DNA of 38,209 nucleotides, from NCBI GenBank assembly GCA_965370205.1, contig CBDUUJ010000001.1, positions 1 to 38,209 of the forward strand. The letters are read 5' to 3'. The position numbers and the translations under genes are program-made. The notes beneath the pieces are model-generated. The model was not told where the DNA came from. It saw only the letters and a program-made list of their open reading frames with translations, and searched no databases. Shown one piece after another: positions 2,888-28,260 of this stretch (the stretch's first letter is position 1; each line of letters opens with the position of its first letter). The DNA comes from an uncultured bacterium (lineage in GTDB: Bacteria > JAJVIF01 > JAPKYR01).

Positions 2888-5800
2888 TTAATACAAGTCA
2901 AATATATACAATCCCATAGTTTGGGAAGCTTCGTATAAATAGCCGTCAAACGCCAGGAGATCGCGTGGGTGGTGATAAAGAATATCACCATAAATATGAC
3001 CCAGGTTGGCAGGACTGTTCGGGGGCCAGACCCAGAACGATACCGGATCTGTTGTGTAACCTGCTGCATACCCGAACTGCCCTTCCACGGTGAGGAAGCC
3101 ATAGCCGCCCATGTCCGGTGGCGGGAGCAGTTCAGAGCCCAAATTAGCAGGCGCTGCCGGGTCAGTTAGATCGGCGATTTCAATTGAATCATATGTCAGG
3201 GCATACAGGTAATTACCGTGGATCTCCGATTCCATATAGCCCGGACTGCCGGGGGTGGAATAAGACCCGACATAAGCGGGATTGAGCGGATTGGTAATTG
3301 AATATATCTCTATGGCATCTCCCGAGCAAACATACATGTAATCCCCGTTGAAAGTGAAATCATAGACGCCATAAGTAAACGACATTGTCATTTCATAATG
3401 GGGTGAATATGGGTTGGAAATGTCGTAAATTTTAACCGGATGGCCTACCTGACTTATATAAACATAGATCGCGTTTTCATAAATGCCAAGCGCGTAGACA
3501 AAGTCAGCCTCAGTCTTAAAATACATAGGTGAGATATTAAGCGGATCCGAAGCGTCATGCAGTGCCCAGATTTTACCTGAATCTGTCGCCAGGACATCGC
3601 CATACAACTGCAGTTCGGAACCAGGATATGCAGGGAAATACTCAGCAGCAACATACGTGCTGGATGGGTCGGAAATGTCAAGTGTCTTGATCCCATCGAA
3701 ACCCGCTGTAATCAGCCAGTCATCCTTTTCAACAAATGAATATGCACTGTTTACCACCTTAAGACGAGAGAGAGATGAAGGTATTTGCGGGATACCGCAG
3801 TCGAAAATCTGGAAACCGGCTCTATAGGGAATGATATATGCAAGGTCATCCCGAACCGCTAGATCCCTCCCCTGGGAAATCATCGGTGTTGAGCTGATAT
3901 AAACCGGGTCGGCCGGGTTCGTAACTTCGCATATCGTCAGCCCGGATTCATCATTACCAATATACGCGTAAGGCCACTCAAGATCGATATACCATGCACT
4001 ATCAGGCACATCAACGGAACCGAATTCGAGAACACTGTTGGTCGCTGAATACAATATCTTCAGAAATCCTTCCCCTGTACTTATTACAGATGCTGCATAT
4101 ATGTAGTTACCTTCGATGGCAATATCCCTCGCCCAGCCGGCTGGGTAGGTATAAGAACCTTTCTGAGTGACCGAAGAGGGATTTTCCACGTCATACACGA
4201 TAATGTCATGCCATGTGCATTCTACAATCCTGGTATCCGGCCCCTCCGGATCGATTAACCCAAGACGCTGCGGACCATACGGAACATTGAATTCGCCGAC
4301 CTTGTCAGGATTCAGCGGGTCGGTCGCATAGTCATATATATATACTTCTGAGGTGGGATTCACACTGGTGCCCACATACAGATGGGTCGAGTTCATGGTT
4401 ATATCACCAAGATCCATCATGATGATCATAAGACCCTCATGGTTAACCGGAGAAGTAATATCAGTGAAATCAATCATGTTGATTTCTGTTTCATCGATAC
4501 CGAGTCCGTTTGTATAGTACAGATATGGATAATTGAAACAGAAAGCCTCGTTCATGTAAATTTTCTCGGTGTACACCTGCACCGGATTGGTTGGATCGCT
4601 TATGTCATACACCCAGAGGCCCATTCCAAAAAGAATCGCATAATCATCGTGCAGCCAGACTCTTTCCGGATTGACGTAAAGGTCCGACGGAGTGACATCC
4701 ACCGGGTTAGATGGAATTACATCTGTAAGCTCTCCCGTAAATTCAAGCAGATAGGGAGATGTCTGTGTATCATTCGATGTCAGCACGCGGATAAAATACT
4801 GCCCCGGCGTGAGAGCGAGATTTTGAAGTCCGATAGACGCTTCACCACCAGAAACATTCACTTCTTCAATCAGAGCATAGGAATCATCGTACAACCCGAG
4901 TTTCGTGGGTTCGGCATCGCACCAGAGACTGATACCACCTGATATGTCATAACCCGGATCGATTTCGAAAAAATAAAAATCACGGTAATCATCGGGAAGA
5001 CATACCTGATCGATAACCTGGTCACCAAATACAATCTCTACCGCCTCAAGCCAGTCATTGTTGGCATCCGCTGAACATTCGGGATCGGGGATATCGAGTA
5101 CGAGAACATTATATGCCGACAGAGAATCATCCGGAGCAGGCATCGCAGTCTGCTGGTATGTCGAGCCATCCGATGATCCCACCCGGCAGACAATGAGCGT
5201 TTCTCCCGCTTCCGACGGAACCGCTGTACCTGTCAAATCGACCGTGTAAACCGCTTTTTCGGCTGTCTGTTTATGCAGAATTCCGTCAGCGCCGCTCGGC
5301 ATCAGGTCCGGAGCCACGACCCGTACCGCGTCGATTTCCGGGACAATATTTCCCGCAGCCTGTCCCTGCCAGTCGAAAATACCGGCCTCAAGCCTTAAAA
5401 CCCCGCCGCCGATTCCCGACTCGCTGTCGTAATAGAGTGTATTTGCAGTCGTCTTCAAACCAATCCGGTACGCTTCCGGCTGATTCGCGTTCATTGGAAA
5501 ATCATCCGGAACCGCATCTGGAGGATTCGGTGACGGCGGATTCCACGCGCAGTCAATTGCGTATCCATACACGATCTGCGGACCGGGGTCCATCGGGAAT
5601 CTGATTTCATATCGACGGGTGTTGCTGCTTCCGGCAGTGAAAACCGCTCTCCCCTGGTCGCTGTCGAGCGGTTCATAGCATACAGCACCCAAACTGCTCG
5701 TCGCATAGAGAATATCCGCGAACAGCTTGTATGGATTCACTGTCGCTGTTAATGAACTTCCCGGCGCGGACGCTAGAATTCCATCTTCATATCCGAGCAT

Positions 5801-6313
5801 TCCGGGTGACGTAAACTCCGTCGGATTCCACCAACGCGTGTATCCATCGGCATTTTCAAGACGGGTCTCATCAGCGCCCGCATAAACAAGCGACCCGACC
5901 GCGTACGTGCCCGGTGTGACTAAAATTCCCTTCACATCGAATCCCGCCAACTGCGGTGATGTTCCGAACGGATGAGCAAGCGTGATATCGAAAACGAATA
6001 ATCCGTTCGCGGGATCATGTTCGGATGGCACCCCGGCTGCGGAAACTCCCATCGTAGAGTTCAGAATCCCCGTCAGATTGAAATGCCATTCCGCCGACCG
6101 TAATGGATGCACTTCAATCCCGTAACTCTCGGAATCCACCTCAATAAGATAATACCCGAGACATTGATGGGTCCGTTCGGATGAACCATCACGCGACATC
6201 AGGATGCCTGGGTCGGAAAGCGGATCGGGATCGGTCGGACCGCCCTGGCATCCGGCTAACGCAATACCTGCGAGGAGAAATATGCAAATGGCGGAAGATA
6301 AGAATGTACGCAT
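2888..6313 (-). CDS. Array paralogue 1 of 7: predicted surface lipoprotein (conserved N-module + PPC-like module + ~14 LVIVD-type propeller repeats), 1141 aa
   Basis: ORF 2888-6364 trimmed to the ATG at 6313. GGAGG lies 10 nt upstream and the product then begins MRTFLSSAICIFLLAGIALAG|C (lipobox LAGC), followed by a Pro/Asp-rich tether. PPC-like signature: ANNDW..A..I.....DDYRDFYFFEI...LGLYDD...GQYFIRV...YLLEF. Repeated blades follow (LWVYDISDPTNP, VYIYDYATDPLNP, IKTLDISDPSS, VKIYDISNPYSP, IEIYSITNPLNP, IEIADLTDPAAP ...) up to the C-terminal LYIFDLY. Confidence 0.9.
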   Translation of the reverse strand: MRTFLSSAICIFLLAGIALAGCQGGPTDPDPLSDPGILMSRDGSSERTHQCLGYYLIEVDSESYGIEVHPLRSAEWHFNLTGILNSTMGVSAAGVPSEHDPANGLFVFDITLAHPFGTSPQLAGFDVKGILVTPGTYAVGSLVYAGADETRLENADGYTRWWNPTEFTSPGMLGYEDGILASAPGSSLTATVNPYKLFADILYATSSLGAVCYEPLDSDQGRAVFTAGSSNTRRYEIRFPMDPGPQIVYGYAIDCAWNPPSPNPPDAVPDDFPMNANQPEAYRIGLKTTANTLYYDSESGIGGGVLRLEAGIFDWQGQAAGNIVPEIDAVRVVAPDLMPSGADGILHKQTAEKAVYTVDLTGTAVPSEAGETLIVCRVGSSDGSTYQQTAMPAPDDSLSAYNVLVLDIPDPECSADANNDWLEAVEIVFGDQVIDQVCLPDDYRDFYFFEIDPGYDISGGISLWCDAEPTKLGLYDDSYALIEEVNVSGGEASIGLQNLALTPGQYFIRVLTSNDTQTSPYLLEFTGELTDVIPSNPVDVTPSDLYVNPERVWLHDDYAILFGMGLWVYDISDPTNPVQVYTEKIYMNEAFCFNYPYLYYTNGLGIDETEINMIDFTDITSPVNHEGLMIIMMDLGDITMNSTHLYVGTSVNPTSEVYIYDYATDPLNPDKVGEFNVPYGPQRLGLIDPEGPDTRIVECTWHDIIVYDVENPSSVTQKGSYTYPAGWARDIAIEGNYIYAASVISTGEGFLKILYSATNSVLEFGSVDVPDSAWYIDLEWPYAYIGNDESGLTICEVTNPADPVYISSTPMISQGRDLAVRDDLAYIIPYRAGFQIFDCGIPQIPSSLSRLKVVNSAYSFVEKDDWLITAGFDGIKTLDISDPSSTYVAAEYFPAYPGSELQLYGDVLATDSGKIWALHDASDPLNISPMYFKTEADFVYALGIYENAIYVYISQVGHPVKIYDISNPYSPHYEMTMSFTYGVYDFTFNGDYMYVCSGDAIEIYSITNPLNPAYVGSYSTPGSPGYMESEIHGNYLYALTYDSIEIADLTDPAAPANLGSELLPPPDMGGYGFLTVEGQFGYAAGYTTDPVSFWVWPPNSPANLGHIYGDILYHHPRDLLAFDGYLYEASQTMGLYIFDLY
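5075..6172 (-). repeat. Conserved ~1.1-kb 5' module of the paralogue family, copy 1 of 7 (dispersed direct repeat)
   Basis: Encodes HQCLGYY...LDIPDPEC. It aligns essentially codon for codon with 9599-10693, 13082-14176, 16577-17671, 20079-21173, 23577-24668 and 27022-28116. The lower boundary is the invariant Cys codon, located by hand in every copy. Confidence 0.9.
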
Positions 6314-6344
6314 GACAAACACACCTCCGGATCTGGTTAATGTA

Positions 6345-6353
6345 ATTATAACA
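6345..6353 (-). promoter_or_regulatory. Extended -10 promoter element (TGtTATAAT) for paralogue 1
   Basis: The minus strand reads ACTGTTATAATTACATTAACCAGATCCGGAGGTGTGTTTGTCATG. It has a perfect TGnTATAAT 31 nt before the ATG and sits downstream of a terminator at 6405-6430. No good -35 is present (GTCAAT). The cassette is homologous to those upstream of paralogues 7, 5 and 3. Confidence 0.45.
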
Positions 6354-6404
6354 GTAAAACGCAAATTATTGACAGCGTCTGAGTTGAGATGGAGAAAGAA
6401 ACTG

Positions 6405-6430
6405 AAAAACCCCGACCATATAAGCCGGGG
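6405..6430 (-). terminator. Rho-independent terminator after the tandem-PPC gene
   Basis: The minus strand reads CCCCGGC-TTATATG-GTCGGGG followed by TTTTT. This is a 7-bp GC-rich stem with one G-U pair, 36 nt downstream of the stop at 6466. Confidence 0.65.
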
Positions 6431-6465
6431 CGTTGTTTTACTACATCGTCGTTACTTACCGCTTA

Positions 6466-7209
6466 TCATGGCTCAATTTCAATCGTATACTCGCCTTCGC
6501 CTTCATAATAATAAACGTAAACATGGCACAAACCGGGCACACGACAGGTGATGCTCTCTTTGGAGCCCCAGTCGTACGCGCCTTCAATCAGTTCCTCGTC
6601 ACTGTAGATCTCGAAATCTATCTCGAAATCTTCGTCATCGAAATAGATGGTGAACGTCGGATTTGTACCTTCCTGGCCATCGAGCACAAACCAATCCTCG
6701 TCACCCACGCAGATATAACCGTTAATCTCCAGACCATCGATCAGGTCGGCAAGGTCGATTTCGTCGTTCGGCTCGATCTCATCTTCACCGGCGCATTCGT
6801 CGGATCCCGGGATGATCTCGATTTCATAATCGCCTTCACCATCCCACCACCAGACATGGACATAGCATACGCTGGGAACCTGACATGTGATCTCTTCTTC
6901 CGTTCCCCAGTCCAGGGCCTCGCCTACCTGTTCATCATCGCTGTAAACTGCGAAATCGACTTCCACTTCCTCGTCATCGAAGTAGATGATGAAAGTCGGG
7001 TGGAAACCCTCCTGTCCCGCAAGGACAAACCAGTCATCGCCGTCTTCCTCATCCATATGTCCCCGGATAACGAATTCATCGATGCTGTCAGCGAGGCTCC
7101 TGCTGTCATTGGACTCGACTTCATCGCGTCCCTCTCCCGCAATCGCGGGAATCACGGTTAGAAGAACAAGCGCCAGAATAATGGATAGTGCTGAAAATAA
7201 TTTGTTCAT
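6466..7209 (-). CDS. Secreted, highly acidic protein composed of two tandem PPC (pre-peptidase C-terminal type) domains, 247 aa
   Basis: GGAGGA lies 9 nt upstream of the ATG. The signal peptide is MNKLFSALSIILALVLLTVIPAIAG. Two ~105-aa halves are clearly homologous: E-x-N-D...LAD.ID...I.G......DEDWFVL.GQEG..PTF.IYFDDE....DF.(I/V)YSD......A.DWG..E.ITC.VP..C.V.V......GEY.IEI. The N-D...D-x-D-W-F...Y...G-x-Y-x-I-x-I pattern is the PPC-domain hallmark. Confidence 0.85.
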   Translation of the reverse strand: MNKLFSALSIILALVLLTVIPAIAGEGRDEVESNDSRSLADSIDEFVIRGHMDEEDGDDWFVLAGQEGFHPTFIIYFDDEEVEVDFAVYSDDEQVGEALDWGTEEEITCQVPSVCYVHVWWWDGEGDYEIEIIPGSDECAGEDEIEPNDEIDLADLIDGLEINGYICVGDEDWFVLDGQEGTNPTFTIYFDDEDFEIDFEIYSDEELIEGAYDWGSKESITCRVPGLCHVYVYYYEGEGEYTIEIEP

Positions 7210-7248
7210 GGATTTTGCATCCTCCAGTTAGTTTATTGTATTTAATGG

Positions 7249-7254
7249 AATATA
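7249..7254 (-). promoter_or_regulatory. Possible -10 element (TATATT) for the tandem-PPC gene
   Basis: The minus strand reads GTGGATTATATTCCATTAAATACAATAAACTAACTGGAGGATGCAAAATCCATG. It resembles the paralogue promoter cassette (TGTTATAATTACATTAAC) with small indels. No convincing -35 is present. Confidence 0.25.
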
Positions 7255-7390: not shown

Positions 7391-10300
7391 TTAATAAAGC
7401 TGGAATATATGAATCCCCTTATAATATGGAACCATTTCGTAAAGATAGCTGTTATCGATTACCATGCTGCTGATTGTATATTCCCCGGGATGAACCTGAC
7501 CGAGCGCTGACGGGCTGTCCGACGGCCATACATTGCAGAAATACGGCGGCATCGGTTTCGAGCCGTGAATATACGCGAACTGCCCGACCATGGTGATACC
7601 GTCAAGCGGATCAAACGCGCCGACATCGATTGTGCTCTCGAAAGCAGGGATTGACGGGTCGCTCAGGTTCGCGATCTCAAGATCCGTATCCGTAATCAGG
7701 TAGATATAATCGCCCTGCACCGATGAATCCTCAAGGTCTGAAGCCATTGGATACGCGCCGATATAGGACGGATTCAGTGGATCGGCGACCGAATATATTT
7801 CCAGGCCGGGATCTGTATCGAGATACATACAAGCCCAATAGAAGGAAAAACCACGCGCAATGTCAGGCGCAACGAACATATCCGTGGTTGTTACAAAGGG
7901 CAGAGAACCGATGTCATATGTAACCACTTTTTTTGAGTCCAGCGCGACATACAGCGCATCATTATGCATGGCAATGGCCATTATGTCCTCGGGTAATGGA
8001 ACGGCTATTATAAGCGACAGATCGGTCGGATCGCTCGCATCGAAAAGCATCCATTGTTTCATGGACGCAACTGCCAGGATGTCATTCTGCAGGTCCAGAT
8101 AGCAGGGCGGGACCGACAGGAAAAACTCTCCAACAACATGTGCGTTTGATGGATCGGAGATATCCACAGTCTTGATTGCAGAATATCCAAACGCCATATC
8201 AGCAACAATAAGATAATCGCCGGAAACTACCGCTGACCAGGGATTATTGACCACCTTTAGACGGGCAATGGGATCGGGTAAAGAGGGATTCTGTATGTCG
8301 AACACCTGAAGCCCCGCGTTATATGGAGCAATACAAAGAATATGCTCATTAATCGATAGATGCCCCCCCAGGGAAATAAGCGGTACCGAACATTTGTGAA
8401 TCGGGGTTGAAGGAATGGAGACATCGCAGACGGTAAGCCCTGCGGAAGTATCACCGATAAACACATACGGCCAGTCAAGAGCGGTAAAGCCGCCTTCACC
8501 GGGTATATCCACCGATCCGAATTCAAAAAAACCGGGCATTGACGGATCGAGGTGCATTACATATAACCATCCATCATTGCCGCTCTTGGCATAAGCAAGA
8601 TAAATCAGATTCCCCCGGGTCGACATGCCGCGCGGTGAGCCTGCTGGAAACGGATAGGGAACTACGTCTGTGACTGCCGACGGGTCATCAACCGAATACG
8701 CATGAATCATGGCGCCATCCGCATCGCCTACTACCAGATACTTTCCAAAGCCGTCTATCTCTGTCAGCGCCATATAATATGTGTAATAGGTGATTGGGAT
8801 GCTGCCGACCTCGACAGGATCAAGCGGATCGGTTATGTAGTCATATATTTTGATTTCATAGGCGGGAGCGGAACCTGTATGGAGATACAGGTGTGTGGAA
8901 TCAAGGCATATTCCTTTTATTCCGTCAGGATACGTGATTAATCCCTCGTGCTGTACCGGGGCAAGCGGGTCAGTGAAATCAACCAGGCCTAACTGCCGTT
9001 CATCAATTCCCGAGATCGTTGAATAGTAACAATATGGATAGTGGAAATTTCCTACCTCTGCCAGGTAGTAATCCTCATTGGCAACCTGAATGGGATTCGC
9101 GGGATCGGTCAGATCATACACCCAGCACTCATAGCCGCAGAGGAAAGCATACTGATCATGAAGCCAGACATATCGCGGATTGACATAGAGCGTCTCCGGT
9201 GTCACATCGACCGGGTCAATGGGTACCACATCCACAAGCTCCCCGTCCAGTTCAAGAAGATACGGCACCACGTTATCGCAACATGGACTTCCCACTCTTA
9301 TGTAATATTGTCCGGGCATCAGCGCCAGTTCATCAAATGATAAAACCGCGACCCCATCCGCCACATAAACATCGGCTATGTGGGATTCCGACCCGTCATA
9401 CAGTCTCAGAGTCGGTTGCGTTGGCCACGGAGGATCGGCATTGGCGTTCAGCCTGATCTCGCCAGTCGCTTCATACCCGACGGGAATGTAAAACGAATAA
9501 AAATCATACCCATCATCCGGATTGCACACCTGATCGATTGCCTCACCGCCGAAATCGATCGGAACCGCCTCGCCGAAATCGTTATTGGCATCTGCCGCAC
9601 AATCCGGATCGGGGATATCGAGCGCAAGAACCTGGTATGCCGACAGGGAATCGGTTGGGGCAGGAGCTCCAGTCTGCTGGTATGTCGAACCATCCGATGA
9701 CGCAACCCGGCAGATAACGAGCGTTTCCCCAGCTTCCGATGGTTCCGCCACTCCGGTCAGGTCAGCCATGTAGACCGCTTTCTCCGCAGTCTTGTACTGT
9801 AAAATCCCATCCACTCCACTCGGCATAAGGTCCGGAGCGATAATCCGTACCGCGTCGATTTCCGGCGGTATATTTCCAGCCGCCTGACCCTGCCAGTCGA
9901 AAACACCGATCTCAAGCCTCAGAACCCCACCGCCGACTCCAAATTCATCATCATAATAGAGAGTGTTCGCAACCGTTTTAATCCCTATCCGATAGGCTTC
10001 AGGCTGATTAGCGTTCATCGGGAAATCATCGGGGACTTCCCCTGGCGGATTCGGGCTTGGCGGATTCCACGCGCAGTCAATTGCATATCCGTAAACAACC
10101 AGCGGACCCGGGTCCATCGGGAACCTGATCTCATACCGACGGGTATTGCTGCTTCCGGCAGTGAAAACCGCTCTCCCCTGATCGCTGTCCAATGGTTCAT
10201 AGCAGACCGACCCAAGATTGCTCGTTGGATATAGAATATCCGCGAACAGCTTGTATGGATTTATTGTCGCCGTCAGAGCACTGGCAGGAGCGGACGCGAG

Positions 10301-10831
10301 AATTCCATCCTCGTATCCAAGCATCCCCGGTGACGTGAACTCGGTCGGATTCCACCAGCGCGTGTATCCATCCGCATTTTCGAGACGGGTTTCATCCGCA
10401 CCCGCGTAAACGAGCGACCCGACCGCGTACGTTCCCGGCGTGATTAAAATTCCCTTCACGTCGAATCCCGCAAGCTGCGGCGATGTATCGAACGGATGCG
10501 CAAGAGTAATATCAAAAACAAACAATCCGTTCGCTGGATCATGCTCGGATGGCACCCCGGCCGCCGAGACTCCCATCGTAGAGTTAAGAACCCCGGTCAG
10601 ATTAAAATGCCATTCAGTTGATCGCAAAGGAATAATCTCAACCGAATAGCTCTCAGTATCAATCTCAACCATGTGGAACCCAAGACATTGATGCGAGGAA
10701 GAACTCGCTGATTCACCGAGCACTGGATTTTCCGTTGATGGCGCCGGGCTGGTGGGATTGTCACTACATCCCACAAGGATAAATAGAATCAAAATAAACA
10801 ACCAGGCGAATACAAGGCTTGATCGGAACAT
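7391..10831 (-). CDS. Array paralogue 2 of 7: predicted surface lipoprotein, same architecture, 1146 aa
   Basis: ORF 7391-10864 trimmed to the ATG at 10831 (GGGAGGG 8 nt upstream). The product begins MFRSSLVFAWLFILILFILVG|C (lipobox LVGC). It has the conserved N-module (SHQCLGF...LDIPDPDC), a PPC-like module (ANNDFGEA..I......DDGYDFYSFYI...LRLYDG...GQYYIRV...YLLEL), LVIVD-type blades and C-terminal IHIFQLY. Confidence 0.9.
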   Translation of the reverse strand: MFRSSLVFAWLFILILFILVGCSDNPTSPAPSTENPVLGESASSSSHQCLGFHMVEIDTESYSVEIIPLRSTEWHFNLTGVLNSTMGVSAAGVPSEHDPANGLFVFDITLAHPFDTSPQLAGFDVKGILITPGTYAVGSLVYAGADETRLENADGYTRWWNPTEFTSPGMLGYEDGILASAPASALTATINPYKLFADILYPTSNLGSVCYEPLDSDQGRAVFTAGSSNTRRYEIRFPMDPGPLVVYGYAIDCAWNPPSPNPPGEVPDDFPMNANQPEAYRIGIKTVANTLYYDDEFGVGGGVLRLEIGVFDWQGQAAGNIPPEIDAVRIIAPDLMPSGVDGILQYKTAEKAVYMADLTGVAEPSEAGETLVICRVASSDGSTYQQTGAPAPTDSLSAYQVLALDIPDPDCAADANNDFGEAVPIDFGGEAIDQVCNPDDGYDFYSFYIPVGYEATGEIRLNANADPPWPTQPTLRLYDGSESHIADVYVADGVAVLSFDELALMPGQYYIRVGSPCCDNVVPYLLELDGELVDVVPIDPVDVTPETLYVNPRYVWLHDQYAFLCGYECWVYDLTDPANPIQVANEDYYLAEVGNFHYPYCYYSTISGIDERQLGLVDFTDPLAPVQHEGLITYPDGIKGICLDSTHLYLHTGSAPAYEIKIYDYITDPLDPVEVGSIPITYYTYYMALTEIDGFGKYLVVGDADGAMIHAYSVDDPSAVTDVVPYPFPAGSPRGMSTRGNLIYLAYAKSGNDGWLYVMHLDPSMPGFFEFGSVDIPGEGGFTALDWPYVFIGDTSAGLTVCDVSIPSTPIHKCSVPLISLGGHLSINEHILCIAPYNAGLQVFDIQNPSLPDPIARLKVVNNPWSAVVSGDYLIVADMAFGYSAIKTVDISDPSNAHVVGEFFLSVPPCYLDLQNDILAVASMKQWMLFDASDPTDLSLIIAVPLPEDIMAIAMHNDALYVALDSKKVVTYDIGSLPFVTTTDMFVAPDIARGFSFYWACMYLDTDPGLEIYSVADPLNPSYIGAYPMASDLEDSSVQGDYIYLITDTDLEIANLSDPSIPAFESTIDVGAFDPLDGITMVGQFAYIHGSKPMPPYFCNVWPSDSPSALGQVHPGEYTISSMVIDNSYLYEMVPYYKGIHIFQLY
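9599..10693 (-). repeat. Conserved 5' module, copy 2 of 7
   Basis: Same alignment as copy 1. The boundary Cys codon (TGT) is at 9599-9601. Confidence 0.9.
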
Positions 10832-10882
10832 GTCGGAACCCTCCCATGTTGGAATACAATACAAAGTACAACAATTACGAAA

Positions 10883-14314: not shown

Positions 14315-14344
14315 GATAAAACCTCCAGGTCGAAAATTTCTCAA

Positions 14345-20800: not shown

Positions 20801-21317
20801 GCATTCCCGGTGATGTGAATTCGGTCGGGTTCCACCAGCGCGAGTAACCGTCGGCGTTTTCGAGCCTCGTCTCATCCGCACCAGCATAAACAAGCGATCC
20901 GACCGCGTATGTTCCCGGCGTGACAAGAATTCCCTTCACGTCGAATCCCGCAAGCTGCGGCGATGTATCGAACGGATGCGCAAGCGTGATATCGAAAACA
21001 AACAATCCGTTCGCTGGATCATGCTCCGATGGTACCCCGGCTGCCGACACTCCCATGGTCGTGTTTAATATCCCAGTCAGGTTGAAATGCCACTCGCCGG
21101 TTCTGAGCGGGAGCACGTCAATTTCGTAAGTCCTGCTGTCAACAGCCAGCATGTAGTAGCCCAGGCATTGATGCGACTGCCCGGCATCACCGGAAAACAT
21201 CGTGGATGGTCCGGACTCGATGCCGGCATCGGGAAGAGCCGGTCCGCTCCGGCATCCGATCAGGAACAACAGCGCAATGAAAATCATAAACGCTGACGAA
21301 TAAAAATATCTCTGCAT
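17892..21317 (-). CDS. Array paralogue 5 of 7: predicted surface lipoprotein, same architecture, 1141 aa
   Basis: The ATG at 21317 has GGAGG 7 nt upstream. The product begins MQRYFYSSAFMIFIALLFLIG|C (LIGC). It has the conserved N-module, a PPC-like module (DNNDYSQA......DDMKDFYFFNI...MKLYDE...GLYYLQV...YFLEL), blades and C-terminal IRIFDLY. Confidence 0.9.
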   Translation of the reverse strand: MQRYFYSSAFMIFIALLFLIGCRSGPALPDAGIESGPSTMFSGDAGQSHQCLGYYMLAVDSRTYEIDVLPLRTGEWHFNLTGILNTTMGVSAAGVPSEHDPANGLFVFDITLAHPFDTSPQLAGFDVKGILVTPGTYAVGSLVYAGADETRLENADGYSRWWNPTEFTSPGMLGYENGILASAPGSLLTATVNPYKYFADILYPTSSLGSVCYEPLDSDQGRGVFTAGSSNTRRYEIRFPMDPGPQIVYGYAIDCAWNPPSPNPPGEVPDDFPMNANQPEAYRIGLKTTANTLYYDSESGIGGGVLRLEIGVFDWQGQAAGNIVPEIDAVRIVAPDLMPSGIDGVLHEQTPEKAVYTVDLTGTAIPSEAGGTLVICRVASSDGSTYQQAGAPAPDTQISAFHVITLDIFDPDCAADDNNDYSQAVELNIGDFVADEVCIPDDMKDFYFFNIDPDYEAVGTIYLYSDAGPASMKLYDESEDIITGASTSGNIAELSFDKLDLMPGLYYLQVYPDVSPGVRPYFLELDAELIDVTPLNPLDVTPSDLYVNPNKVWIHNNMAFLVGKGTWVYDVSDPGNPVQLSHDLDIRMNTKACFKYPYCYMVKYAGNWEDRIDLIDFSDPYAPVLHEDVLHYPTQISGICINSTHLYVTTKVNPTSEAIIYDYASDPLNPAVVDSFNVPYEARLLDLLDPEGSGTHLVIGTWDDILTYDVEVPSSVTQTGTYTFPLGPPRDIATWDDYIYVAHDVSGGGEGWLYVLRQTLVPDIVEESTLDTPGFASNITIAWPYVYMGDGDAGLTTVNVADPALPVHESSIPLVSVGTHLAEDNDVVYIIPMGAGLQAVDVSDPAAPNTLSRLQVVNRPGSMVVKDGYLIVTESGMYHKGFKTVDISDPPNASVVAEHFLTEQPTYLVLDGNNLIARFNMLWGLYDATDPLNITHHISVPVSNHIWSMAVRGDAFYVALEPVGGPEIQIFDISVPAAPTYENAISLTNNVCDISFKENYMYLNNNLEILVYSLTDPFNPVFEGNYLITYVHGMDIRGDYLHMATETDVEIVDISIPGSPVFAGSTTLPVTYINSIIVGGQFVYAVTMNDGIYTCRVWPPDSPSPFGPVTTDDYGGTFLLTHEGFLYNASEFAGIRIFDLY
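20079..21173 (-). repeat. Conserved 5' module, copy 5 of 7
   Basis: Same alignment as copy 1. The boundary Cys codon is at 20079-20081. Confidence 0.9.
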
Positions 21318-21347
21318 GAGAAAACCTCCACAATTTAATGTGAATTA

Positions 21348-21375
21348 ATTATACCATCTAACCGGAATTTGTCAG
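21348..21375 (-). promoter_or_regulatory. Sigma-70-type promoter for paralogue 5 (CTGACA - 16 nt - TGgTATAAT)
   Basis: The minus strand reads CTGACAAATTCCGGTTAGATGGTATAATTAATTCACATTAAATTGTGGAGGTTTTCTCATG. The -35 is 5/6 and overlaps the TGA stop of paralogue 6. The spacer is 16 nt, the extended -10 is perfect, and the -10 lies 30 nt from the ATG. Confidence 0.5.
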
Positions 21376-24300
21376 TAAAGCTCGTGAATCCGCATGCCGT
21401 CATACTGGGTCATGCCGTAAATAAAACCATCATCCACAATTAATTCCGTGCTCAAACCAAAGAAGGAAAGGAAATTCTGGTCATACAGTACGCCATGAAC
21501 TGTCGGATTGTTCGGAGGCCATACCCAGCACGCGTAGGCTCCCGAGGTTGCGCCCTGCACATACGCGAACTGCCCCGCAACATCGATTTCAGTCAGTTCA
21601 AGCAACGGATCGATCTGCAAATCACCTGAATATACAGGCGATGACGGATCGCTTATCTGCGCGATCTCATATGTAGTTGGTGTGACCATGTTAAGATAAT
21701 TCCTCTGCACTGCCAGTTCCATCAACTCGGCGCTTGTGCTGTAATGCGTCTCGAACACAGGCGCAAGTGGACTGCTTATATCCCAGACATCAACACCGTT
21801 CGCCGTCGCGAGATACATGTAACCGTCGCCGATCTCGATATCGTTCACCTCTGCTGAAACCACCGGCGAACCCTCCAGGCTCGGCGAATACGGGGACGAA
21901 ATATCATAGACAAGAAGATTCTGTGAAGAAATTGTGATGTACAGAACATTATTTCCAATAATCTCCGCAGCGGTAGGATTAAAATTAAGACTGAATGTGT
22001 CATACCAACTGATGGATTCCGGATCAGTTACGTTCAACAGGTAGCACTGATACGATGAGCACACCGCCAGCTTGTTCCCTCCCACCGCCATGACTCTGGG
22101 ATAGTCGGTCAGATTGTATATATCAACAACCTCGGCATTCGGCGGATCGGAAATATCAACACTCTTCACCGCATAGTGATATCCCGCACGCTCACCCACA
22201 AACAGGTGATCATCCTGCATTACAGCCATACGCGGTGCATTCACAACCGGAATCGTCGCGAGAAGGACCGGATTATCCGGAGGGTCCACATCGAACGCCT
22301 GCATACCCGCACCCTCGGGGATCGCGCAGACCATGTCGCCATACACTCCGAGATGTACACAGTTTGAGACAAGAGGAGTCGTGGACTCTATCTCGATATT
22401 CGCGGGATCGTCAACATTGCAGATCGTAAGCCCATCCATGCCGTCTGCGATAAAAACATTCGGCGACCAACTGTATATGCTCTCCGCTTCACCGGGCAGG
22501 TTTATCCATCCAACCTCCGCGAGATCATTCGGAATCACTGTATTATGCTCAAGTACATGCAGAGATCCCTGGTCGGTTGCGGTATTGAAATGTGTGTAGT
22601 AAATCGTATAAAAATCAATGTACATGTCGGTTATAATCCCCGAACCGGGAATGAAATTACCGTCGGCGGTAATATTTTCAAGGTCGTCAATATCGAAGAC
22701 GCGGATGTCATTTTCGTAGGTGATCAGTTTTTTATTCGGACCGTGGGGATTCATAAGTTTCAGCATCTCAGAATTGTCCGTGTTGGGGATGGTCGTGATC
22801 ATGACTGGGTGAGTCGGGTCGGTAATTGAATAGATGTTGATCGGCGTGGTGATAAAATTTGGTTTTCCAACAAAAAGGTGTGTGCCGTTCGTGCAGATTC
22901 CATGAAGCGCCACAGGCGCATCAATCACATTATCGTAGTGCACCGGATTCTCCGGATCGCTGAAATCGATATAGTTAACCTTTCCGTAAACCGAACCGGT
23001 ATTTTCGATATAGAAAAATTTCGGATTGTAATAGCACGCATCGGGACCAATATTCCAATCCTCATGGAAGATAAAATCGAAATCATTCGAAAAATTCTTT
23101 TTATAAACCCAGCAGCCGTCAGGACCCGTGAGAATCCAGTATGAGTGCGCGTTCCAGACCTTCTCAGGATTGCAGTACAACCAGTCCGGGGTCACTTCGG
23201 TCGACGGCACATCCGGCATGACATCCACAAGCCCGGCATCCAGCTCAAGAAAATACGGAACAACCTGATCGACGCATGTCGTACTTACTTTTATATAGTT
23301 ACTCGTTGGCATAAACGTGTAGTTGTCCAGATTAAAAATCCCGGTACCACCACAAGTGGAGCCTTCAGTTATTAATTTATGGAACTCGTCATACAATCCC
23401 AGCTTGCACGATTCAACATCGCAGTAAAGCCTGATCTCGCCGATGGGCTGCTCGCCGGGATCGAAATTGAAGGTGTAAAAATCGGCAACGTCATCGGGAA
23501 CGCAAACCTGGCTGGTTATCGATTCCCCAATGGAGATCGGTTCCGCTTCCGCAAAATCGTTATTGCCATCCGGAGCGCAGACCACATCGGGTACTTCAAG
23601 CTCAAGAACCTGATAGGCGGATAATGGAGCATCCGGAGCGGGCATTGCGGTCTGCTGGTATGTCGATCCATCCGATGACCCCACCCGGCAGATTATCAGT
23701 GTGTCACCCGGCTCGGATGGTATCGCCGTACCGGTCAGATCGATTGAATAGACCACCTTTTCCGTTGTATGACTCTGGAGAATCGCGTCAACGCCGCCTG
23801 TCATTAAATCGGGTGCATATATCCTCACCGCATTTATTTCCGGAGGAATATTTCCAACGGCCTGACCCTGCCAGTCAAAGACGGCGATCTCAAGCCTTAA
23901 AACACCCCCGCCGACTCCCGCGTTACTGTCGTAATAAAGCGAGTCCGCGGTGGTATACAATGCAACCCGGTACGCCTCCGGCTGGTTCGCATTAATCGGA
24001 AAATCATCGGGAACTTCAGCGGGTGGATTCGGAACTGGCGGATTCCATGAGCAGTCGATTGCGTATCCATACTTAACGACCGGACCCGGCATCGGGAACC
24101 TGATCTCGTACCGTCGGGTGTTACTCTCCCCCGCCGTAAAAACCCCTCTGCCCTGATCGCTGTCAAGCGGTTCGTAGCATACTGCACCGAGACTGCTTAT
24201 TGGGTAGAGGATATCCGCGAAATATTTGTATGGATTTACAGTCGCCGCAAGCAATCCTCCCGGCGCGGACGCGAGAATTCCTTCCGTGTAACCGAGCATC

Positions 24301-24812
24301 CCGGGTGATGTAAACTCCGTCGGATTCCACCAGCGCGTGTAACCATCCGCGTTTTCAAGCCGCACATCATCCACATCGGCAAAAACGTTCGCTCCGAGCA
24401 CGAGAGAACCCGGAGTTATTAAAACACCCTTGACATCGAATCCCGCAAGCTGCGGCGATGTATCGAATGGATGCGCAAGCGTGATATCGAAAACGAACAA
24501 TCCGTTCGCGGGATCATGTTCCGACGGAACCCCTGCGGCTGAAACTCCCATCGTGCCGTTGAGAACCCCCGTCAGGTTGAAATGCCATTCTGATGATCGA
24601 AGCGGAAGCATCTCAAGCTCAAGGTTTTCCATGTCAACAGTCAGCATGTAGTATCCAAGGCAATTGTGGGTTGATGCCTGGGCTGCCGACTGATGAACAA
24701 TGACATCCTCGGGGTCAACTGCTGCAGGGCTTGTCGGGTTGCTCTGACAGCCAACTGCAATAAAGGACAGGAAAAGACCTGCAAATAACAGCGATTGGAT
24801 TATCCTATTCAT
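21372..24812 (-). CDS. Array paralogue 6 of 7: predicted surface lipoprotein, same architecture, 1146 aa
   Basis: ORF 21372-24884 trimmed to the ATG at 24812 (GGAGG 8 nt upstream). The product begins MNRIIQSLLFAGLFLSFIAVG|C (AVGC). The longer ORF would overlap the stop of paralogue 7 and add a non-signal-like leader. The N-module has THNC instead of HQC, and the C-terminus is MRIHELY. Confidence 0.9.
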   Translation of the reverse strand: MNRIIQSLLFAGLFLSFIAVGCQSNPTSPAAVDPEDVIVHQSAAQASTHNCLGYYMLTVDMENLELEMLPLRSSEWHFNLTGVLNGTMGVSAAGVPSEHDPANGLFVFDITLAHPFDTSPQLAGFDVKGVLITPGSLVLGANVFADVDDVRLENADGYTRWWNPTEFTSPGMLGYTEGILASAPGGLLAATVNPYKYFADILYPISSLGAVCYEPLDSDQGRGVFTAGESNTRRYEIRFPMPGPVVKYGYAIDCSWNPPVPNPPAEVPDDFPINANQPEAYRVALYTTADSLYYDSNAGVGGGVLRLEIAVFDWQGQAVGNIPPEINAVRIYAPDLMTGGVDAILQSHTTEKVVYSIDLTGTAIPSEPGDTLIICRVGSSDGSTYQQTAMPAPDAPLSAYQVLELEVPDVVCAPDGNNDFAEAEPISIGESITSQVCVPDDVADFYTFNFDPGEQPIGEIRLYCDVESCKLGLYDEFHKLITEGSTCGGTGIFNLDNYTFMPTSNYIKVSTTCVDQVVPYFLELDAGLVDVMPDVPSTEVTPDWLYCNPEKVWNAHSYWILTGPDGCWVYKKNFSNDFDFIFHEDWNIGPDACYYNPKFFYIENTGSVYGKVNYIDFSDPENPVHYDNVIDAPVALHGICTNGTHLFVGKPNFITTPINIYSITDPTHPVMITTIPNTDNSEMLKLMNPHGPNKKLITYENDIRVFDIDDLENITADGNFIPGSGIITDMYIDFYTIYYTHFNTATDQGSLHVLEHNTVIPNDLAEVGWINLPGEAESIYSWSPNVFIADGMDGLTICNVDDPANIEIESTTPLVSNCVHLGVYGDMVCAIPEGAGMQAFDVDPPDNPVLLATIPVVNAPRMAVMQDDHLFVGERAGYHYAVKSVDISDPPNAEVVDIYNLTDYPRVMAVGGNKLAVCSSYQCYLLNVTDPESISWYDTFSLNFNPTAAEIIGNNVLYITISSQNLLVYDISSPYSPSLEGSPVVSAEVNDIEIGDGYMYLATANGVDVWDISSPLAPVFETHYSTSAELMELAVQRNYLNMVTPTTYEIAQISDPSSPVYSGDLQIDPLLELTEIDVAGQFAYVQGATSGAYACWVWPPNNPTVHGVLYDQNFLSFFGLSTELIVDDGFIYGMTQYDGMRIHELY
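23577..24668 (-). repeat. Conserved 5' module, copy 6 of 7
   Basis: Same alignment as copy 1, one codon shorter (FPMPGP versus FPMDPGP). The boundary Cys codon is at 23577-23579. Confidence 0.88.
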
Positions 24813-24843
24813 GAGGTTATCCTCCGGTTTTCGATCTGATAAA

Positions 24844-27800
24844 TCAGTACAAGTCCCAGATACGAACAATAAAATCAGGATCAAGCTCGTAATAATAGCC
24901 GTCGTGAATCAGTACCTGGTTAGGCTTCACTGCGTATTCCGATCCGTAAAGAGGCCCGATAACGGTCGGGTCATCCAGGGGCCAGACGCGCATGACGGCA
25001 GGTGGGGTTGTCCAATAAGGCTGCAGAATGGCGAACTGGTTCTCAACCGCGATATATTGGCCGTGGGGAGCATCCGGATGCGGCTCGGATGCCACGAACG
25101 TGGGTGTCTGCGGATTTGAAATATCAGCAATCTCCAGCGTGTCCTCAGTCGCCATGTAAAGGTAATCACCGTCAATCGTCATATTCGTAACTGAAGCCAA
25201 TGCGGTATATGTGTCAATATAATTTGGATCGAGAGGGTTATTGATTGAATAGACAAGGATATCTCCTCCGGACCTTGCGTACATGATGTTATCCTTGAAG
25301 AGAAATTGTTTTGCCAGTTCTGTTACAGCAATTGATTTAACATATGACGGGAGTGACCAGTTCGATATATCCCACACGCCAAAAGTCCAATCTAAGTGCC
25401 CGATATAAAGCGCGGTATCTGTCAGGCCAATGCTTAAAACCCACTTCGCGGTGTCATATACATCCATTCCCACAAGCAGGGACGGGTCGGAGGAATCTAC
25501 CGTCATAAAATATTGCCCGTTAACAGCGGCTATCAATTTGTCGCCATTGACTTCAATGCGGCTTGGCCAATAGCCGAGGATCAACTCATCGGCGATAAAT
25601 GCATTTGCAGGGTCCGAGATATCCACACTCTTAATTGCGTAATAAGGATCAGCGGATTCAGTCGCGAACATGTAGTCACCGTCGATAGCGAGTTCCGATG
25701 GGTCCCCCAGGCCGATTGTGCGTCCGAAATCGTTGAGTCCGGGAAAACCGATCATTCTCAAACCGGCTTCGCCAAGGGCATACCAGGCATACTGACCCTC
25801 AATGTCCATGTCGAGCATTTTGGCATCGTCGAGTGTGTAATTCGCGACATGGACCGGGTCGTTCGGATTACTGATATCCATCTTCATGATATGCAGATCG
25901 TTTGCCACGAACCCGAAATCCCCCTCGACATCAACAAGATTGGGCGAGTAGACGAGAGAATCACTGTCTTTGGAGACCAAACCGTTTGCATCTATGTATG
26001 TCGAAACGAAGTAATTGTTGGCACCCGAATCGTACATTACATGAAAACAGTAATTATCGATTGTTGTGATGTCTCGTATTGAAGTGCCGGACAGATATGA
26101 AATAATCCCAGGGGCAGGAATGGCTGATTTATCGGTCACATTATAAAAATTTACCATTAAATAGTTCTCTGAGACGACAAGCCAGTAATCGGGGCCGTAT
26201 GCATTATATAGCAGCTCCATTTCCTGCGGTGGCTTGTAGTGCGGGATAGTTGCCACTAATACCGGGGCGGTGGGATCGGTGGCAATATCATATATATCGA
26301 TATTCGAGGTTTCCAGACCGAGGTAGAGGTAATCGGGTTCCGCCTGGAGACAATTTACAGCCCCACCTGCCAGCATAATATCCTTATGTAGAACAGGATT
26401 GGAGGGGTCGGTCATGTCGATCATACTGATATTTAGAGTACTAAACGAATCCACCAAATAAATATAGGGATGAACAAGGGCTGGTTTCTGGCCGATATTT
26501 ATTTCCACATGGCTCAGGAGTGGAGGATCGAACTTGTCTGCGCCATAGTCATACACCCAGAGTCCATTCTTCCCTGATGCAAATGCCAACTGACCGTACG
26601 CTGTTACCCAGGTTGGATTAAAGCAGAGACCGTCAGGGGTGACATTCACGGGGTCCAACGGGGTTACATCCTCCAGCTCGATATTTGGCTCAATCATATA
26701 AATAAACGCATGACCTGATGTTTGAGTCAGCACGCGAAGATAAAAGTGTCCCAGCATGATACCCAGCGCCCCGAAATCAATCGATGCGACGCCGCCACTT
26801 ACCGCGACCTCCGAGATCAGGGCTTCGGAATCATCGTAAAGACCGAAATCCGTCGGCTCGGCATCGCAGTAAAGGGTCATTTCACCCGCAACCAGATTAC
26901 CCCACGGGATATCGAACTCGAAGAAATCCTTGTAATCATCCGGCGCGCACATCTGATCAATCGTCGGTTCATTGAGATCAAGATCAAACGCCTCGTTGAA
27001 CTGATTGTTTGTATCCGCAGTACATTCTGGATCGGGGATATCGAGAGCGATCACATTATAGGCCGACAGGGAATCATCAGGAGCAGGCATCGCAGTTTGC
27101 TTGTATGTCGATCCGTCCGATGACGCCACCCGGCAGACAACGAGCGTTCCTCCCGCCTCGGTTGGAACGGCTACGCCGGTCAGATCGACCGTGTAAACCG
27201 CTTTTTCGGGCGTCTGTTCATGCAGAATTCCATCGACGCCGCTCGACATCAGGTCAGGAGCAACGAACCGTACAGTGCTTAATTCCGGGGGTATATTTCC
27301 AGCAGCCTGACCCTGCCAGTCGAAAATGCCGGCCTCAAGCCTCAGAACACCTCCGCCGATTCCCGACTCACTGTCGTAGTAGAGAGTGTTCGCAGTTGTT
27401 TTTATCCCTATGCGGTACGCCTCTGGCTGATTTGCGTTCATCGGAAAATCATCCGGAACTTCAGTGGGAGGATTTGGCGAAGGCGGATTCCAGGAACAAT
27501 CTATTGCATATCCATACACGATCTGCGGACCTGGATCCATCGGAAATCGAATCTCGTATCGACGGGTGTTATTGCTTCCCGCTGTGAAAACGCCTCGTCC
27601 CTGATCGCTGTCGAGCGGTTCATAACAGACAGCTCCGAGACTGCTTATTGGGTAGAGGATGTCCGCGAAATATTTGTATGGATTCACAGTCGCAGTCAGC
27701 GAACTTCCCGGCGCGGACGCGAGAATCCCATCCTCATATCCGAGCATTCCGGGTGATGTAAATTCGGTCGGATTCCACCACCTTGTATATCCATCGGCGT

Positions 27801-28260
27801 TTTCAAGACGGGTCTCATCAGCGCCCGAAAAAATAAGCGATCCGACCGCATACGTTCCCGGCGTGACAAGAATTCCCTTTACATCGAATCCGGCAAGCTG
27901 CGGCGATGTTTCGAACGGATGCGAGAGGGTGATATCGAAAACGAATAGTCCGTTCGCAGGATCATGTTCCGACGGAACCCCTGCTGCGGAAACTCCCATC
28001 GTCGTGTTCAGTATCCCGGTCAGATTAAAATGCCATTCTGATGACCTGAGAGGAGTCGCATCAACTTCCATCGCGTCGGTATTGATAATCAGCGTGTAGT
28101 ATCCAAAACACTGATGCGATTGCCCGGCATCACCGGATGTCACAGCGGAAGAGTTAGAATCTGCGCTTGAATCGGGAACGGTTGGAGCATCCTGACATCC
28201 CGGAAGAACCAGCAGGATTATCAAAACCACGAATGCTGATAAATAAATTGCTCGGGGCAT
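24844..28260 (-). CDS. Array paralogue 7 of 7 (promoter-proximal): predicted surface lipoprotein, same architecture, 1138 aa
   Basis: The ATG at 28260 has AAGGAG 8 nt upstream. The product begins MPRAIYLSAFVVLIILLVLPG|C (LPGC). It has the conserved N-module (SHQCFGYY...LDIPDPEC), a PPC-like module (TNNQFNEA......DDYKDFFEFDI...FGLYDD...GHFYLRV), blades and C-terminal VRIWDLY. Confidence 0.9.
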   Translation of the reverse strand: MPRAIYLSAFVVLIILLVLPGCQDAPTVPDSSADSNSSAVTSGDAGQSHQCFGYYTLIINTDAMEVDATPLRSSEWHFNLTGILNTTMGVSAAGVPSEHDPANGLFVFDITLSHPFETSPQLAGFDVKGILVTPGTYAVGSLIFSGADETRLENADGYTRWWNPTEFTSPGMLGYEDGILASAPGSSLTATVNPYKYFADILYPISSLGAVCYEPLDSDQGRGVFTAGSNNTRRYEIRFPMDPGPQIVYGYAIDCSWNPPSPNPPTEVPDDFPMNANQPEAYRIGIKTTANTLYYDSESGIGGGVLRLEAGIFDWQGQAAGNIPPELSTVRFVAPDLMSSGVDGILHEQTPEKAVYTVDLTGVAVPTEAGGTLVVCRVASSDGSTYKQTAMPAPDDSLSAYNVIALDIPDPECTADTNNQFNEAFDLDLNEPTIDQMCAPDDYKDFFEFDIPWGNLVAGEMTLYCDAEPTDFGLYDDSEALISEVAVSGGVASIDFGALGIMLGHFYLRVLTQTSGHAFIYMIEPNIELEDVTPLDPVNVTPDGLCFNPTWVTAYGQLAFASGKNGLWVYDYGADKFDPPLLSHVEINIGQKPALVHPYIYLVDSFSTLNISMIDMTDPSNPVLHKDIMLAGGAVNCLQAEPDYLYLGLETSNIDIYDIATDPTAPVLVATIPHYKPPQEMELLYNAYGPDYWLVVSENYLMVNFYNVTDKSAIPAPGIISYLSGTSIRDITTIDNYCFHVMYDSGANNYFVSTYIDANGLVSKDSDSLVYSPNLVDVEGDFGFVANDLHIMKMDISNPNDPVHVANYTLDDAKMLDMDIEGQYAWYALGEAGLRMIGFPGLNDFGRTIGLGDPSELAIDGDYMFATESADPYYAIKSVDISDPANAFIADELILGYWPSRIEVNGDKLIAAVNGQYFMTVDSSDPSLLVGMDVYDTAKWVLSIGLTDTALYIGHLDWTFGVWDISNWSLPSYVKSIAVTELAKQFLFKDNIMYARSGGDILVYSINNPLDPNYIDTYTALASVTNMTIDGDYLYMATEDTLEIADISNPQTPTFVASEPHPDAPHGQYIAVENQFAILQPYWTTPPAVMRVWPLDDPTVIGPLYGSEYAVKPNQVLIHDGYYYELDPDFIVRIWDLY
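27022..28116 (-). repeat. Conserved 5' module, copy 7 of 7
   Basis: Same alignment as copy 1. The boundary Cys codon is at 27022-27024. Confidence 0.9.

Follow-up and report, generated by a model that had tools for sequence, protein, structure and literature searches.

Evidence for domain-limited concerted evolution in a tandem array of seven predicted surface-lipoprotein genes from an uncultured bacterium

Protein families with a constant N-terminal part and a variable C-terminal part include the mycobacterial PE/PPE proteins and the polymorphic toxins, in which the variable part follows a short motif (CdiA-CT after VENN and Rhs after PxxxxDPxGL). The 38,209-nt stretch of DNA that is the subject of this study (the window; contig CBDUUJ010000001.1 of an uncultured bacterium) carries a tandem array of seven paralogous genes whose products combine a conserved N-terminal domain (the N module) with a divergent C-terminal part (the body). 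Similarity limited to one segment of a gene has been described in Helicobacter pylori, where one segment of babA/babB and of homA/homB is alike within a strain while the rest keeps between-strain relationships (PMC3960876, citing Pride and Blaser 2002). That paper attributes the segmental similarity to RecA-dependent intragenomic gene conversion. Long-lasting concerted evolution of prokaryotic duplicates has been reported by Wang and Chen 2018 (PMC6053082), and cell-surface proteins with the LVIVD repeat (PF08309) by Adindla et al. 2004 (PMC2447325).

The seven genes of the array, named W1–W7 in their coordinate order along the window and all on the minus strand, were called as co-directional open reading frames (ORFs) of 1138–1170 codons each. 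From the identity profiles, phylogenies, synonymous sites and recombination tests set out below, we conclude that domain-limited concerted evolution by gene conversion has very probably acted on six of the seven N modules, on top of purifying constraint.

The identity step and the two histories

Amino-acid identity among the copies falls from ~84% to ~36% across ~20 codons around an invariant Cys (the junction Cys). An earlier reading of this DNA, made from its letters alone (the sequence-only reading), had described an abrupt within-gene switch at this residue, and the switch is real: the sliding-window identity plot steps and the profile is not uniform. In 30-column windows, amino-acid identity is 0.67–0.92 over residues 81–410 of W1, 0.57 over residues 411–440 and 0.21–0.45 beyond. 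A maximum-likelihood fit with two change points delimits a block at W1 residues 87–436, with an identity of 0.84 within it and of 0.35 and 0.36 in its flanks (six copies). The positions given by the sequence-only reading for the seven junction Cys codons (Table 1) are all exact, and its observation that the stretch from H-(Q/N)-C to the Cys aligns nearly without gaps also holds, with 1 gapped column in 365 as against 61 in the remainder of the alignment.

Other parts of that description required correction. The module had been called near-identical, which is true of the protein but not of the DNA: nucleotide identity in the block is 0.68–0.85, and the longest identical run of any pair is 68 nt (W4–W5). 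The peptides quoted as common to all seven copies are found in most of them; GVSAAGVPSEHDPANGLFVFDITL and RRYEIRFPM are present in six and absent from W3, and PDDFPMNANQPEAY is present in five. The switch was placed right at the Cys codon, and it does lie near the Cys, but as a zone, the pairwise nucleotide change points lying between codons −24 and +15 relative to the Cys (median −9). Finally, the conserved stretch had been taken as the 5′ module of the gene, starting at H-Q-C. The 5′ edge of the block usually lies ~26 codons past the H of H-Q-C, at EWHFNLTG, and the signal peptide and linker 5′ of the block, with 0.33–0.39 amino-acid and 0.48 nucleotide identity, have diverged as much as the body has, which makes the conserved block an internal one. 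The copies are also not equally alike within it. The N module of W3 is an outlier, at 64–67% identity to the other copies, and that of W6 is intermediate, at 73–77%.

The histories of the N module and the body were compared using homologues sampled from a protein database (260) and from 75 loci of about ten uncultivated genomes, many of which contain arrays of the same family. In 100 of 100 bootstraps, the N modules of W1, W2, W4, W5, W6 and W7 fall into a single clade specific to the window, a grouping that is recovered in 0 of 100 for the bodies. Instead, the body of W1 groups with P0011, P0013, P0014, P0015 and CAYLVL_L003_+1392 (100% bootstrap), that of W2 with P0066 (99%), that of W5 with P0004, P0005 and P0007 (89%) and that of W6 with CBDURU_L034_+9787, P0030, P0041, P0043 and P0092 (100%). 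The body of W7 is 25–30% identical to its neighbours and 44–50% identical to P0076, P0056 and CBDURU_L032_+9772, with which it is grouped at 100%. More generally, the best body matches lie in other genomes, at 41–54% identity, and the N modules of those same matches are 50–68% identical to the window copy. For the N modules of the six copies, the best match is a window neighbour, at 73–90%, and the bodies of those neighbours are only 25–46% identical; nothing outside the window exceeds an N-module identity of 0.71 to any of the six. The exchange of partners can be followed along single genes: W1 is closer to its window paralogues than to its body orthologue until approximately residue 440, after which the order is reversed, and W7 behaves likewise. 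Set against the arrays of related genomes, the N-module and body phylogenies are thus incongruent.

Two copies depart from this pattern in degree. The N module of W6 falls inside the six-copy clade at 100% and is intermediate in its degree of homogenisation. W3 pairs with CBDUXL_L025_+5332 both in the N-module tree (66%; 83% when P0086 and P0097 are included) and in the body tree (100%), its N module being 64% identical to that of this body orthologue, and it has escaped homogenisation. In CBDUXL_L025, a W3-like and a W1-like gene are adjacent and in the same order as in the window. Because this order is kept, and because a heparinase-like neighbour of the array is syntenic in three genomes, the loci are regarded as orthologous.

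Synonymous sites separate the age of the two parts from the constraint acting on them. For each pair of copies, we took the alignment columns in which the amino acid is shared and its codons are four-fold degenerate, and scored identity at the third position. This four-fold identity is 0.49–0.65 in the N modules of the six copies and 0.36–0.46 for pairs that include W3. In the propeller that makes up most of the body, it is 0.19–0.46, where ~0.28 is expected by chance, and the drop falls at the same junction as the amino-acid step. Synonymous divergence (dS, by the NG86 method) is 0.6–1.3 among the N modules and saturated in the body. As a control, four clean orthologue pairs from DAOVJF and CBDURU gave N-module/body dS values of 0.24/0.24, 0.40/0.53, 0.30/0.25 and 0.18/0.21. 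The two parts are equal in these orthologues, which shows that synonymous sites of the N module are not specially constrained. In the six window copies, the N modules accordingly descend from a more recent ancestor than the bodies to which they are joined.

Constraint nonetheless contributes to the step. The per-segment comparison of dN/dS (omega) that the sequence-only reading had proposed was run on the four clean orthologue pairs and gave a lower omega in the N module (0.13–0.23) than in the body (0.26–0.42), which suggests that, family-wide, purifying selection on the N module is roughly two- to three-fold stronger than on the body. These values point to relaxed purifying selection on the body, not to gene-wide positive selection. 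The relation between the two parts was calibrated between genomes, where a body identity of 0.25–0.45 corresponds to an N-module identity of 0.55–0.60 (standard deviation (s.d.) ~0.05). The six window copies have N-module identities of 0.79–0.87, which is 4–5 s.d. more than bodies of their identity would predict between genomes. The visible step can thus be divided roughly equally between the difference in constraint that runs through the family and homogenisation, the latter adding ~0.25 identity to the baseline.

Base composition also alternates along the array, with a G+C content of 0.52–0.54 over the N modules and of 0.46–0.50 over the bodies (for example, positions 5001–6000 vs 3001–5000). 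GC-biased gene conversion was considered as a cause and rejected: at four-fold sites, G+C is 0.57 in both parts, and the alternation therefore reflects amino-acid composition.

Of the recombination tests that the sequence-only reading had called for, the pairwise homoplasy index (PHI) and a GENECONV-like run test were carried out in our own implementations, and both detect mosaicism in the N module. For PHI, 0 of 500 permutations reached the value observed in the N module; in the propeller, which is saturated, p was 0.14 and 0.016 at two window sizes. The run test returned significant common tracts of 20–68 nt, with p ≤ 0.001 for several pairs. Identical stretches of 20 nt or longer in the alignment number 81 within the module and 0 in the 2.3-kb body or the signal region. 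The ends of the tracts vary from pair to pair at both edges of the module, as can be read from the alignment: W5 and W7 have SGDAGQSHQC in common on the upstream side of the module, and immediately before the Cys AGAPAPDTQISAFHVITLDI is common to W4 and W5.

Proposed process and alternative explanations

These results are consistent with the following course of events. The seven genes would be old paralogues of a cell-surface lipoprotein family, with bodies that predate the split from the other genomes. The N modules of W1, W2, W4, W5, W6 and W7 would subsequently have been homogenised by non-reciprocal homologous recombination between the tandem copies, superimposed on the stronger purifying selection that acts on the N module throughout the family. 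Several patch-like exchanges of short tracts probably took place, not a single event, and gene conversion of the RecA type is the likely mechanism. Tract ends would pile up at the module edges because only the module has enough nucleotide identity to seed recombination. Such a boundary would be self-reinforcing, in that exchange keeps the module alike and likeness permits exchange, and uniformity of the N module may be tolerated or even favoured if it serves as a shared stalk or docking domain. The sequence-only reading had offered recombinational homogenisation of the 5′ module as one of two explanations of the step. For six of the seven copies, the observed conflict between trees, the step at four-fold sites, the mosaicism and the confinement of identical runs to the module bear it out; it does not extend to W3 and explains only part of the step. 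Its other explanation, diversifying selection on the 3′ body, is neither required nor supported gene-wide, as the bodies are closer to those of other genomes and orthologue omega is 0.26–0.42.

Several points weigh against gene conversion in the six copies or limit what it can be taken to mean. The trees were built by neighbour joining on corrected p-distances and not by maximum likelihood, and the permutations behind the recombination tests ignore among-site rate variation. The body of W4 has no supported partner, W1 and CBDUXL_L025_+8812 form a strict pair in just 31% of bootstraps, and some body groupings are weak because body divergence is deep. Every genome compared is a metagenome assembly, and none is nearer than ~81% RpoA identity; events therefore cannot be ordered relative to recent speciation. 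In the neighbour-joining tree, the six-copy N clade stands beside the orthologue group with W5-like bodies (CAYGZQ_L002 and CBDUXL_L011), but a search for the donor of the converted module found support of 39% (the six with CAYGZQ_L002) and 3%, and no donor is claimed. Finally, there is no long identical tract (maximum 68 nt) and N-module dS is 0.6–1.3, so that the data do not show conversion to be still under way and would look the same after an old burst as in a slow steady state. Homogenisation appears to be old or now very slow.

If the step had arisen from a single history without recombination, in which purifying selection merely slowed the N module, one would expect the milder step of the same shape that is in fact found family-wide, a mean identity over all family pairs that is higher in the N module (0.56) than in the body (0.28), and a lower orthologue omega in the N module; W3 and much of the baseline are covered in this way. 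Constraint alone, however, cannot yield conflicting trees with 100% support on both sides, cannot yield a step at four-fold sites when control dS is equal in both parts and leaves six N modules 4–5 s.d. above the between-genome expectation, which makes it very improbable as the whole explanation. We attach just as little credence to recent tandem duplication followed by rapid diversifying selection on the body, for which the N-module tree would be the true gene tree. The copies are tandem and co-directional, their bodies are merely 25–46% identical and these bodies are probable binding surfaces, with the loop-rich blades in which diversifying selection is common. However, the bodies are closer to those in other genomes (41–54%, with 89–100% bootstrap) than to one another, and the existence of such relatives contradicts duplication after speciation. 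The order of the W3-like and W1-like genes is kept in CBDUXL_L025, synonymous sites are saturated in the body and not in the N module, and body omega in the clean orthologues is well under 1.

Replacement of modules by unequal crossing-over or domain shuffling, in which one N module was duplicated and fused to existing bodies, we rate as unlikely. Tandem direct repeats of 1.1 kb with ~80% identity are a substrate for unequal exchange, copy number and order vary between genomes (in CBDUXL_L025, no W2 counterpart separates the W3-like from the W1-like gene) and in other proteins the N module is joined to unrelated bodies such as BNR propellers, Y_Y_Y domains and an M12-like zincin. In a simple crossover chimera, however, the 5′ end of the donor would come along as well, whereas here the block is internal and the signal and linker are divergent; moreover, the 5′ and 3′ tract ends differ by pair, and the PHI mosaicism inside the module points to several patch-like events. 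That the assembler mixed reads of paralogues or strains in the repeats, creating false similarity or false joins, deserves a thought since the window is a metagenome-derived contig and repeats are the classic site of chimeric joins, but it is scarcely credible: the N modules, which differ at 12–30% of nucleotides between copies, are too different in DNA to collapse (no identical run exceeds 68 nt), the seven ORFs are intact with an omega of ~0.1 between them, and the same N-versus-body pattern is found in independent assemblies.

Two further candidates were rejected. Polymorphic-toxin cassettes of the contact-dependent inhibition (CDI) or Rhs type do not fit, as the bodies align over their full length with the same PPC and LVIVD architecture and are not unrelated to one another. 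No toxin family was matched in the Pfam scan of the copies covered, and no immunity-like gene lies downstream of them, the spacers being 19–74 nt long and the single 1-kb gap coding for a protein with two PPC repeats. A diversity-generating retroelement target was also rejected, because direct repeats are confined to the N modules and one short body motif, with no template/variable pair. No reverse transcriptase was found, in that the array holds no further large ORF and its flanking genes are carB, the heparinase-like gene and ribosomal, rpoA and secY genes, although not all small ORFs were scanned.

Homogenisation of the N module is not peculiar to the window. In the JAUWTM_L014 trio, dS is 0.6–0.8 in the N module and 1.2–3.9 in the body, and four DASWIV copies on three contigs form an N-module clade at 94% that appears in 1% of body bootstraps. 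Of the 53 members labelled by genome, 25 have their closest N-module relative in their own genome and only 6 their closest body relative. The reverse of the usual ratio is seen in JAUWTM_L012 (−1885) and CBDURU_L028 (+464), whose bodies are 70% identical (dS 1.06) and whose N modules are 59% identical with saturated dS; replacement of one of these two N modules is the apparent cause. Among the arrays sampled, N-module identity within an array runs from 0.51 to 0.82, and the window array is the most homogenised. N-module homogenisation is thus recurrent but sporadic between arrays.

Protein architecture, family and genomic setting

Each protein consists of a hydrophobic signal, a Pro/Ser/Gly-rich linker of ~30 residues, the N module (~365 residues), a PPC-like domain (~120) and a propeller (~600). 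In the alignment, all seven copies have L/A/S-x-G-C after the hydrophobic stretch, which resembles a lipobox; that of W7 carries an unusual Pro (L-P-G-C). In W1, W2, W3 and W7, the four copies that were scanned, the propeller matches LVIVD (PF08309) at 39–46.5 bits (46.5 for W1), the Pfam cut-off being 20.2. The segment at 4431–4474 (...IDFTDP..PV.HE...) and its equivalents are the most conserved part of the blades and, outside the N modules, the sole DNA repeat family found in every copy.

To the sequence-only reading, the domain after the junction had looked PPC-like, and this label is right. An AlphaFold2 model of W5 residues 60–560 was obtained with a mean predicted local distance difference test score (pLDDT) of 89.5 and a predicted template modelling score (pTM) of 0.84. 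In Foldseek, its post-Cys part superposes on collagenase collagen-binding/PPC domains with target-normalised TM-scores of 0.66–0.80 and root-mean-square deviations of 2.4–3.5 Å (matches 5sv5, 2o8o, 1nqd and 4hpk; E = 2e-6 to 5e-6). By sequence, this part matches merely at E = 0.045 in a search of the PDB and has no Pfam hit. The post-junction domain is thus predicted, from the model, to be PPC/collagen-binding-like in fold. The junction Cys is kept in 117 of 117 family members, and a second Cys, 25 residues past it, is invariant in 114 of 114 aligned sequences; the two could be joined by a disulfide. H-Q-C was considered as a catalytic motif and rejected, given that the H is present in 97 and the C in just 69 of 117 sequences across the family.

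The N module itself matches no Pfam or NCBIfam model. In a PDB sequence search, the PPC part alone found a match. Modelled alone with AlphaFold2, the module of W5 is all-beta (pLDDT 92.1), and the best PDB match to it in Foldseek has a query-normalised TM-score of 0.25. Its matches, all at or below this score, are generic beta-sandwiches (among them transglutaminase barrels, the sulfite oxidase C-domain and a xanthanase). A profile built from the seven N modules matches 1,492 clusters (clustered at 50% identity), and for 1,357 of these E ≤ 1e-10. In the full-length profile matches, which are proteins of 450–1900 residues, the N module nearly always begins at residue ~45–60, right after the signal. 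The fetched loci contain 131 ORFs with an N module, of which 61 have an LVIVD propeller body and 70 do not (for example, CAYGZQ_L046 +158, CAYGZQ_L050 +2894, CBDUXL_L061 +9700 and JAUWTM_L067 +2608). Among the alternative bodies are BNR-type propellers, Y_Y_Y-like domains and an M12-like HExxH zincin with additional PPC repeats, and multi-domain proteins of 1700–1900 residues are likewise headed by the N module. Many of the non-LVIVD members retain the Cys-x-x-D-x-N start of the PPC domain directly behind it.

This distribution suggests that the N module is a common stalk or docking domain with interchangeable heads. We mention with considerable doubt a more specific proposal, that the module belongs to a surface-display system peculiar to the lineage and docks one partner (for instance, machinery for export, anchoring or assembly), and that homogenisation is selected co-evolution and not a neutral by-product of recombination between repeats. 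If so, all family members in one cell would have to fit the same partner. In any case, the analysis flags a large unannotated family of N-terminal domains that dominates the predicted surface proteome of a deep-branching uncultivated lineage.

The copies (Table 1) are separated by spacers of 19–74 nt, with a single 1-kb gap between W2 and W1. This gap was considered as a decayed family member and rejected, as it gives no significant match to the family profile and codes for a protein with two PPC repeats. On translation, this 247-residue protein shows a signal peptide and a pair of repeats marked by the motifs D-x-D-W-F and Y-x-I-E-I, and its gene contains an internal DNA duplication (6487–6700 vs 6826–7039, 68% identity). 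It has no Pfam or NCBIfam match and no homologue among the fetched loci. The gene starts need some care. As listed, W6 starts at a TTG that lies within the 3′ end of W7, an overlap of 41 nt (24844–24884), and the real start is likely to be an internal ATG near 24812 (MNRIIQSLLF...), where the signal peptide begins. The W1 ORF was counted from the earliest possible start codon, and its true start is probably the internal Met that precedes the signal peptide. The listed starts of W1, W2 and W3 also appear to lie too far upstream.

Table 1. Coordinates in the window of the seven paralogues, their parts and neighbouring genes
Feature	Coordinates	Strand	N module	Junction Cys codon	H-(Q/N)-C start	Remarks
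W1, paralogue 1	2888..6364	-	5075..6169	5075-5077	6169	Putative lipoprotein signal, N module (H-Q-C to junction Cys), PPC-like domain and LVIVD propeller
W1 high-identity block	5057-6106	-				Residues 87-436; change-point analysis
Small secreted protein, 247 aa	6466..7209	-				Two PPC-like repeats; in the 1-kb gap between W2 and W1
W2, paralogue 2	7391..10864	-	9599-10693	9599-9601	10693	
W3, paralogue 3	10883..14344	-	13082-14176	13082-13084	14176	
W4, paralogue 4	14387..17818	-	16577-17671	16577-16579	17671	
W5, paralogue 5	17892..21317	-	20079-21173	20079-20081	21173	
W5 propeller	17895-19715	-				From about residue 535 to the end
W5 PPC-like domain	19716-20081	-				About residues 413-534
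W6, paralogue 6	21372..24884	-	23577-24668	23577	24668	H-N-C; junction motif E-V-P-D-V-V-C
W7, paralogue 7	24844..28260	-	27022-28116	27022-27024	28116	
Heparinase II/III-like gene	28387..30477	+				PF07940, E = 3.7e-6; divergent from W7

The array is flanked by carB on one side and, on the other, by the heparinase-like gene followed by rpsI, rplM, truA, rpoA, rpsD, adk and secY, which is an ordinary chromosomal context. Homologues of the heparinase-like gene (59–63% identity) adjoin family members in CAYGZQ_L002, DAOVJF_L035 and CBDURU_L034, and this recurring neighbour hints at a conserved functional tie of the array to polysaccharide degradation. The nearest relative of the window RpoA (33385–34524, minus strand) among 5.8 billion proteins is 81% identical, ~30 clusters lie at 70–81%, and the RpoA proteins of named organisms (Bacillota) are 42–46% identical. 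The source lineage is thus deep and uncultivated. Related metagenome-assembled genomes carry the submitters' label 'Planctomycetota bacterium' or merely 'bacterium', a label that is unverified.

Comparison with known systems

By its parts, the array belongs with described proteins. Its propeller, in the four copies scanned, lies above the PF08309 cut-off, as in the LVIVD proteins, and its post-Cys domain superposes on the collagen-binding domains of the clostridial collagenases ColG and ColH and on a Bacillus anthracis PPC domain. It differs from both LVIVD proteins and collagenases in its 365-residue N module, for which there is no Pfam or NCBIfam model. By its layout, it resembles the PE/PPE and CdiA/Rhs families in that a conserved N module is followed by a short motif and then by a variable C part, with the N module also found here on differing bodies. 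Unlike the bodies of CdiA and Rhs, those in the window are homologous (25–46% identity) and not unrelated cassettes, and neither immunity-like genes nor a toxin domain was detected; where the sequence switches sharply, a domain boundary and a recombination boundary come together. An apparent 'hypervariable tail' in a tandem family can stem from homogenisation of the head and not from diversification of the tail, and annotators should not read such steps as antigenic variation or toxin cassettes without an N-versus-C tree and a test of synonymous sites.

By its evolution, the array is closest to bab and hom of H. pylori, where likewise one segment of paralogous surface-protein genes is alike within a genome and the remainder is orthologous. 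The protein families are unrelated, and the segment in H. pylori is a 3′ membrane barrel at dispersed loci, whereas the segment here is a 5′ module, internal to the gene, whose seven copies lie in tandem. Conversion in H. pylori is ongoing and has been seen experimentally; here it would be ancient (dS 0.6–1.3) and is deduced from sequence. The study of prokaryotic duplicates in PMC6053082 shares with ours the definition and test of concerted evolution (paralogues within a genome closer than orthologues) and its recurrence in several lineages, but concerns whole genes, mostly of core pathways or complexes, in place of one domain of lineage-specific predicted surface lipoproteins in which the process is sporadic. 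The phenomenon is thus already known and no new mechanism is implied; what is new is its instance in a large uncharacterised family.

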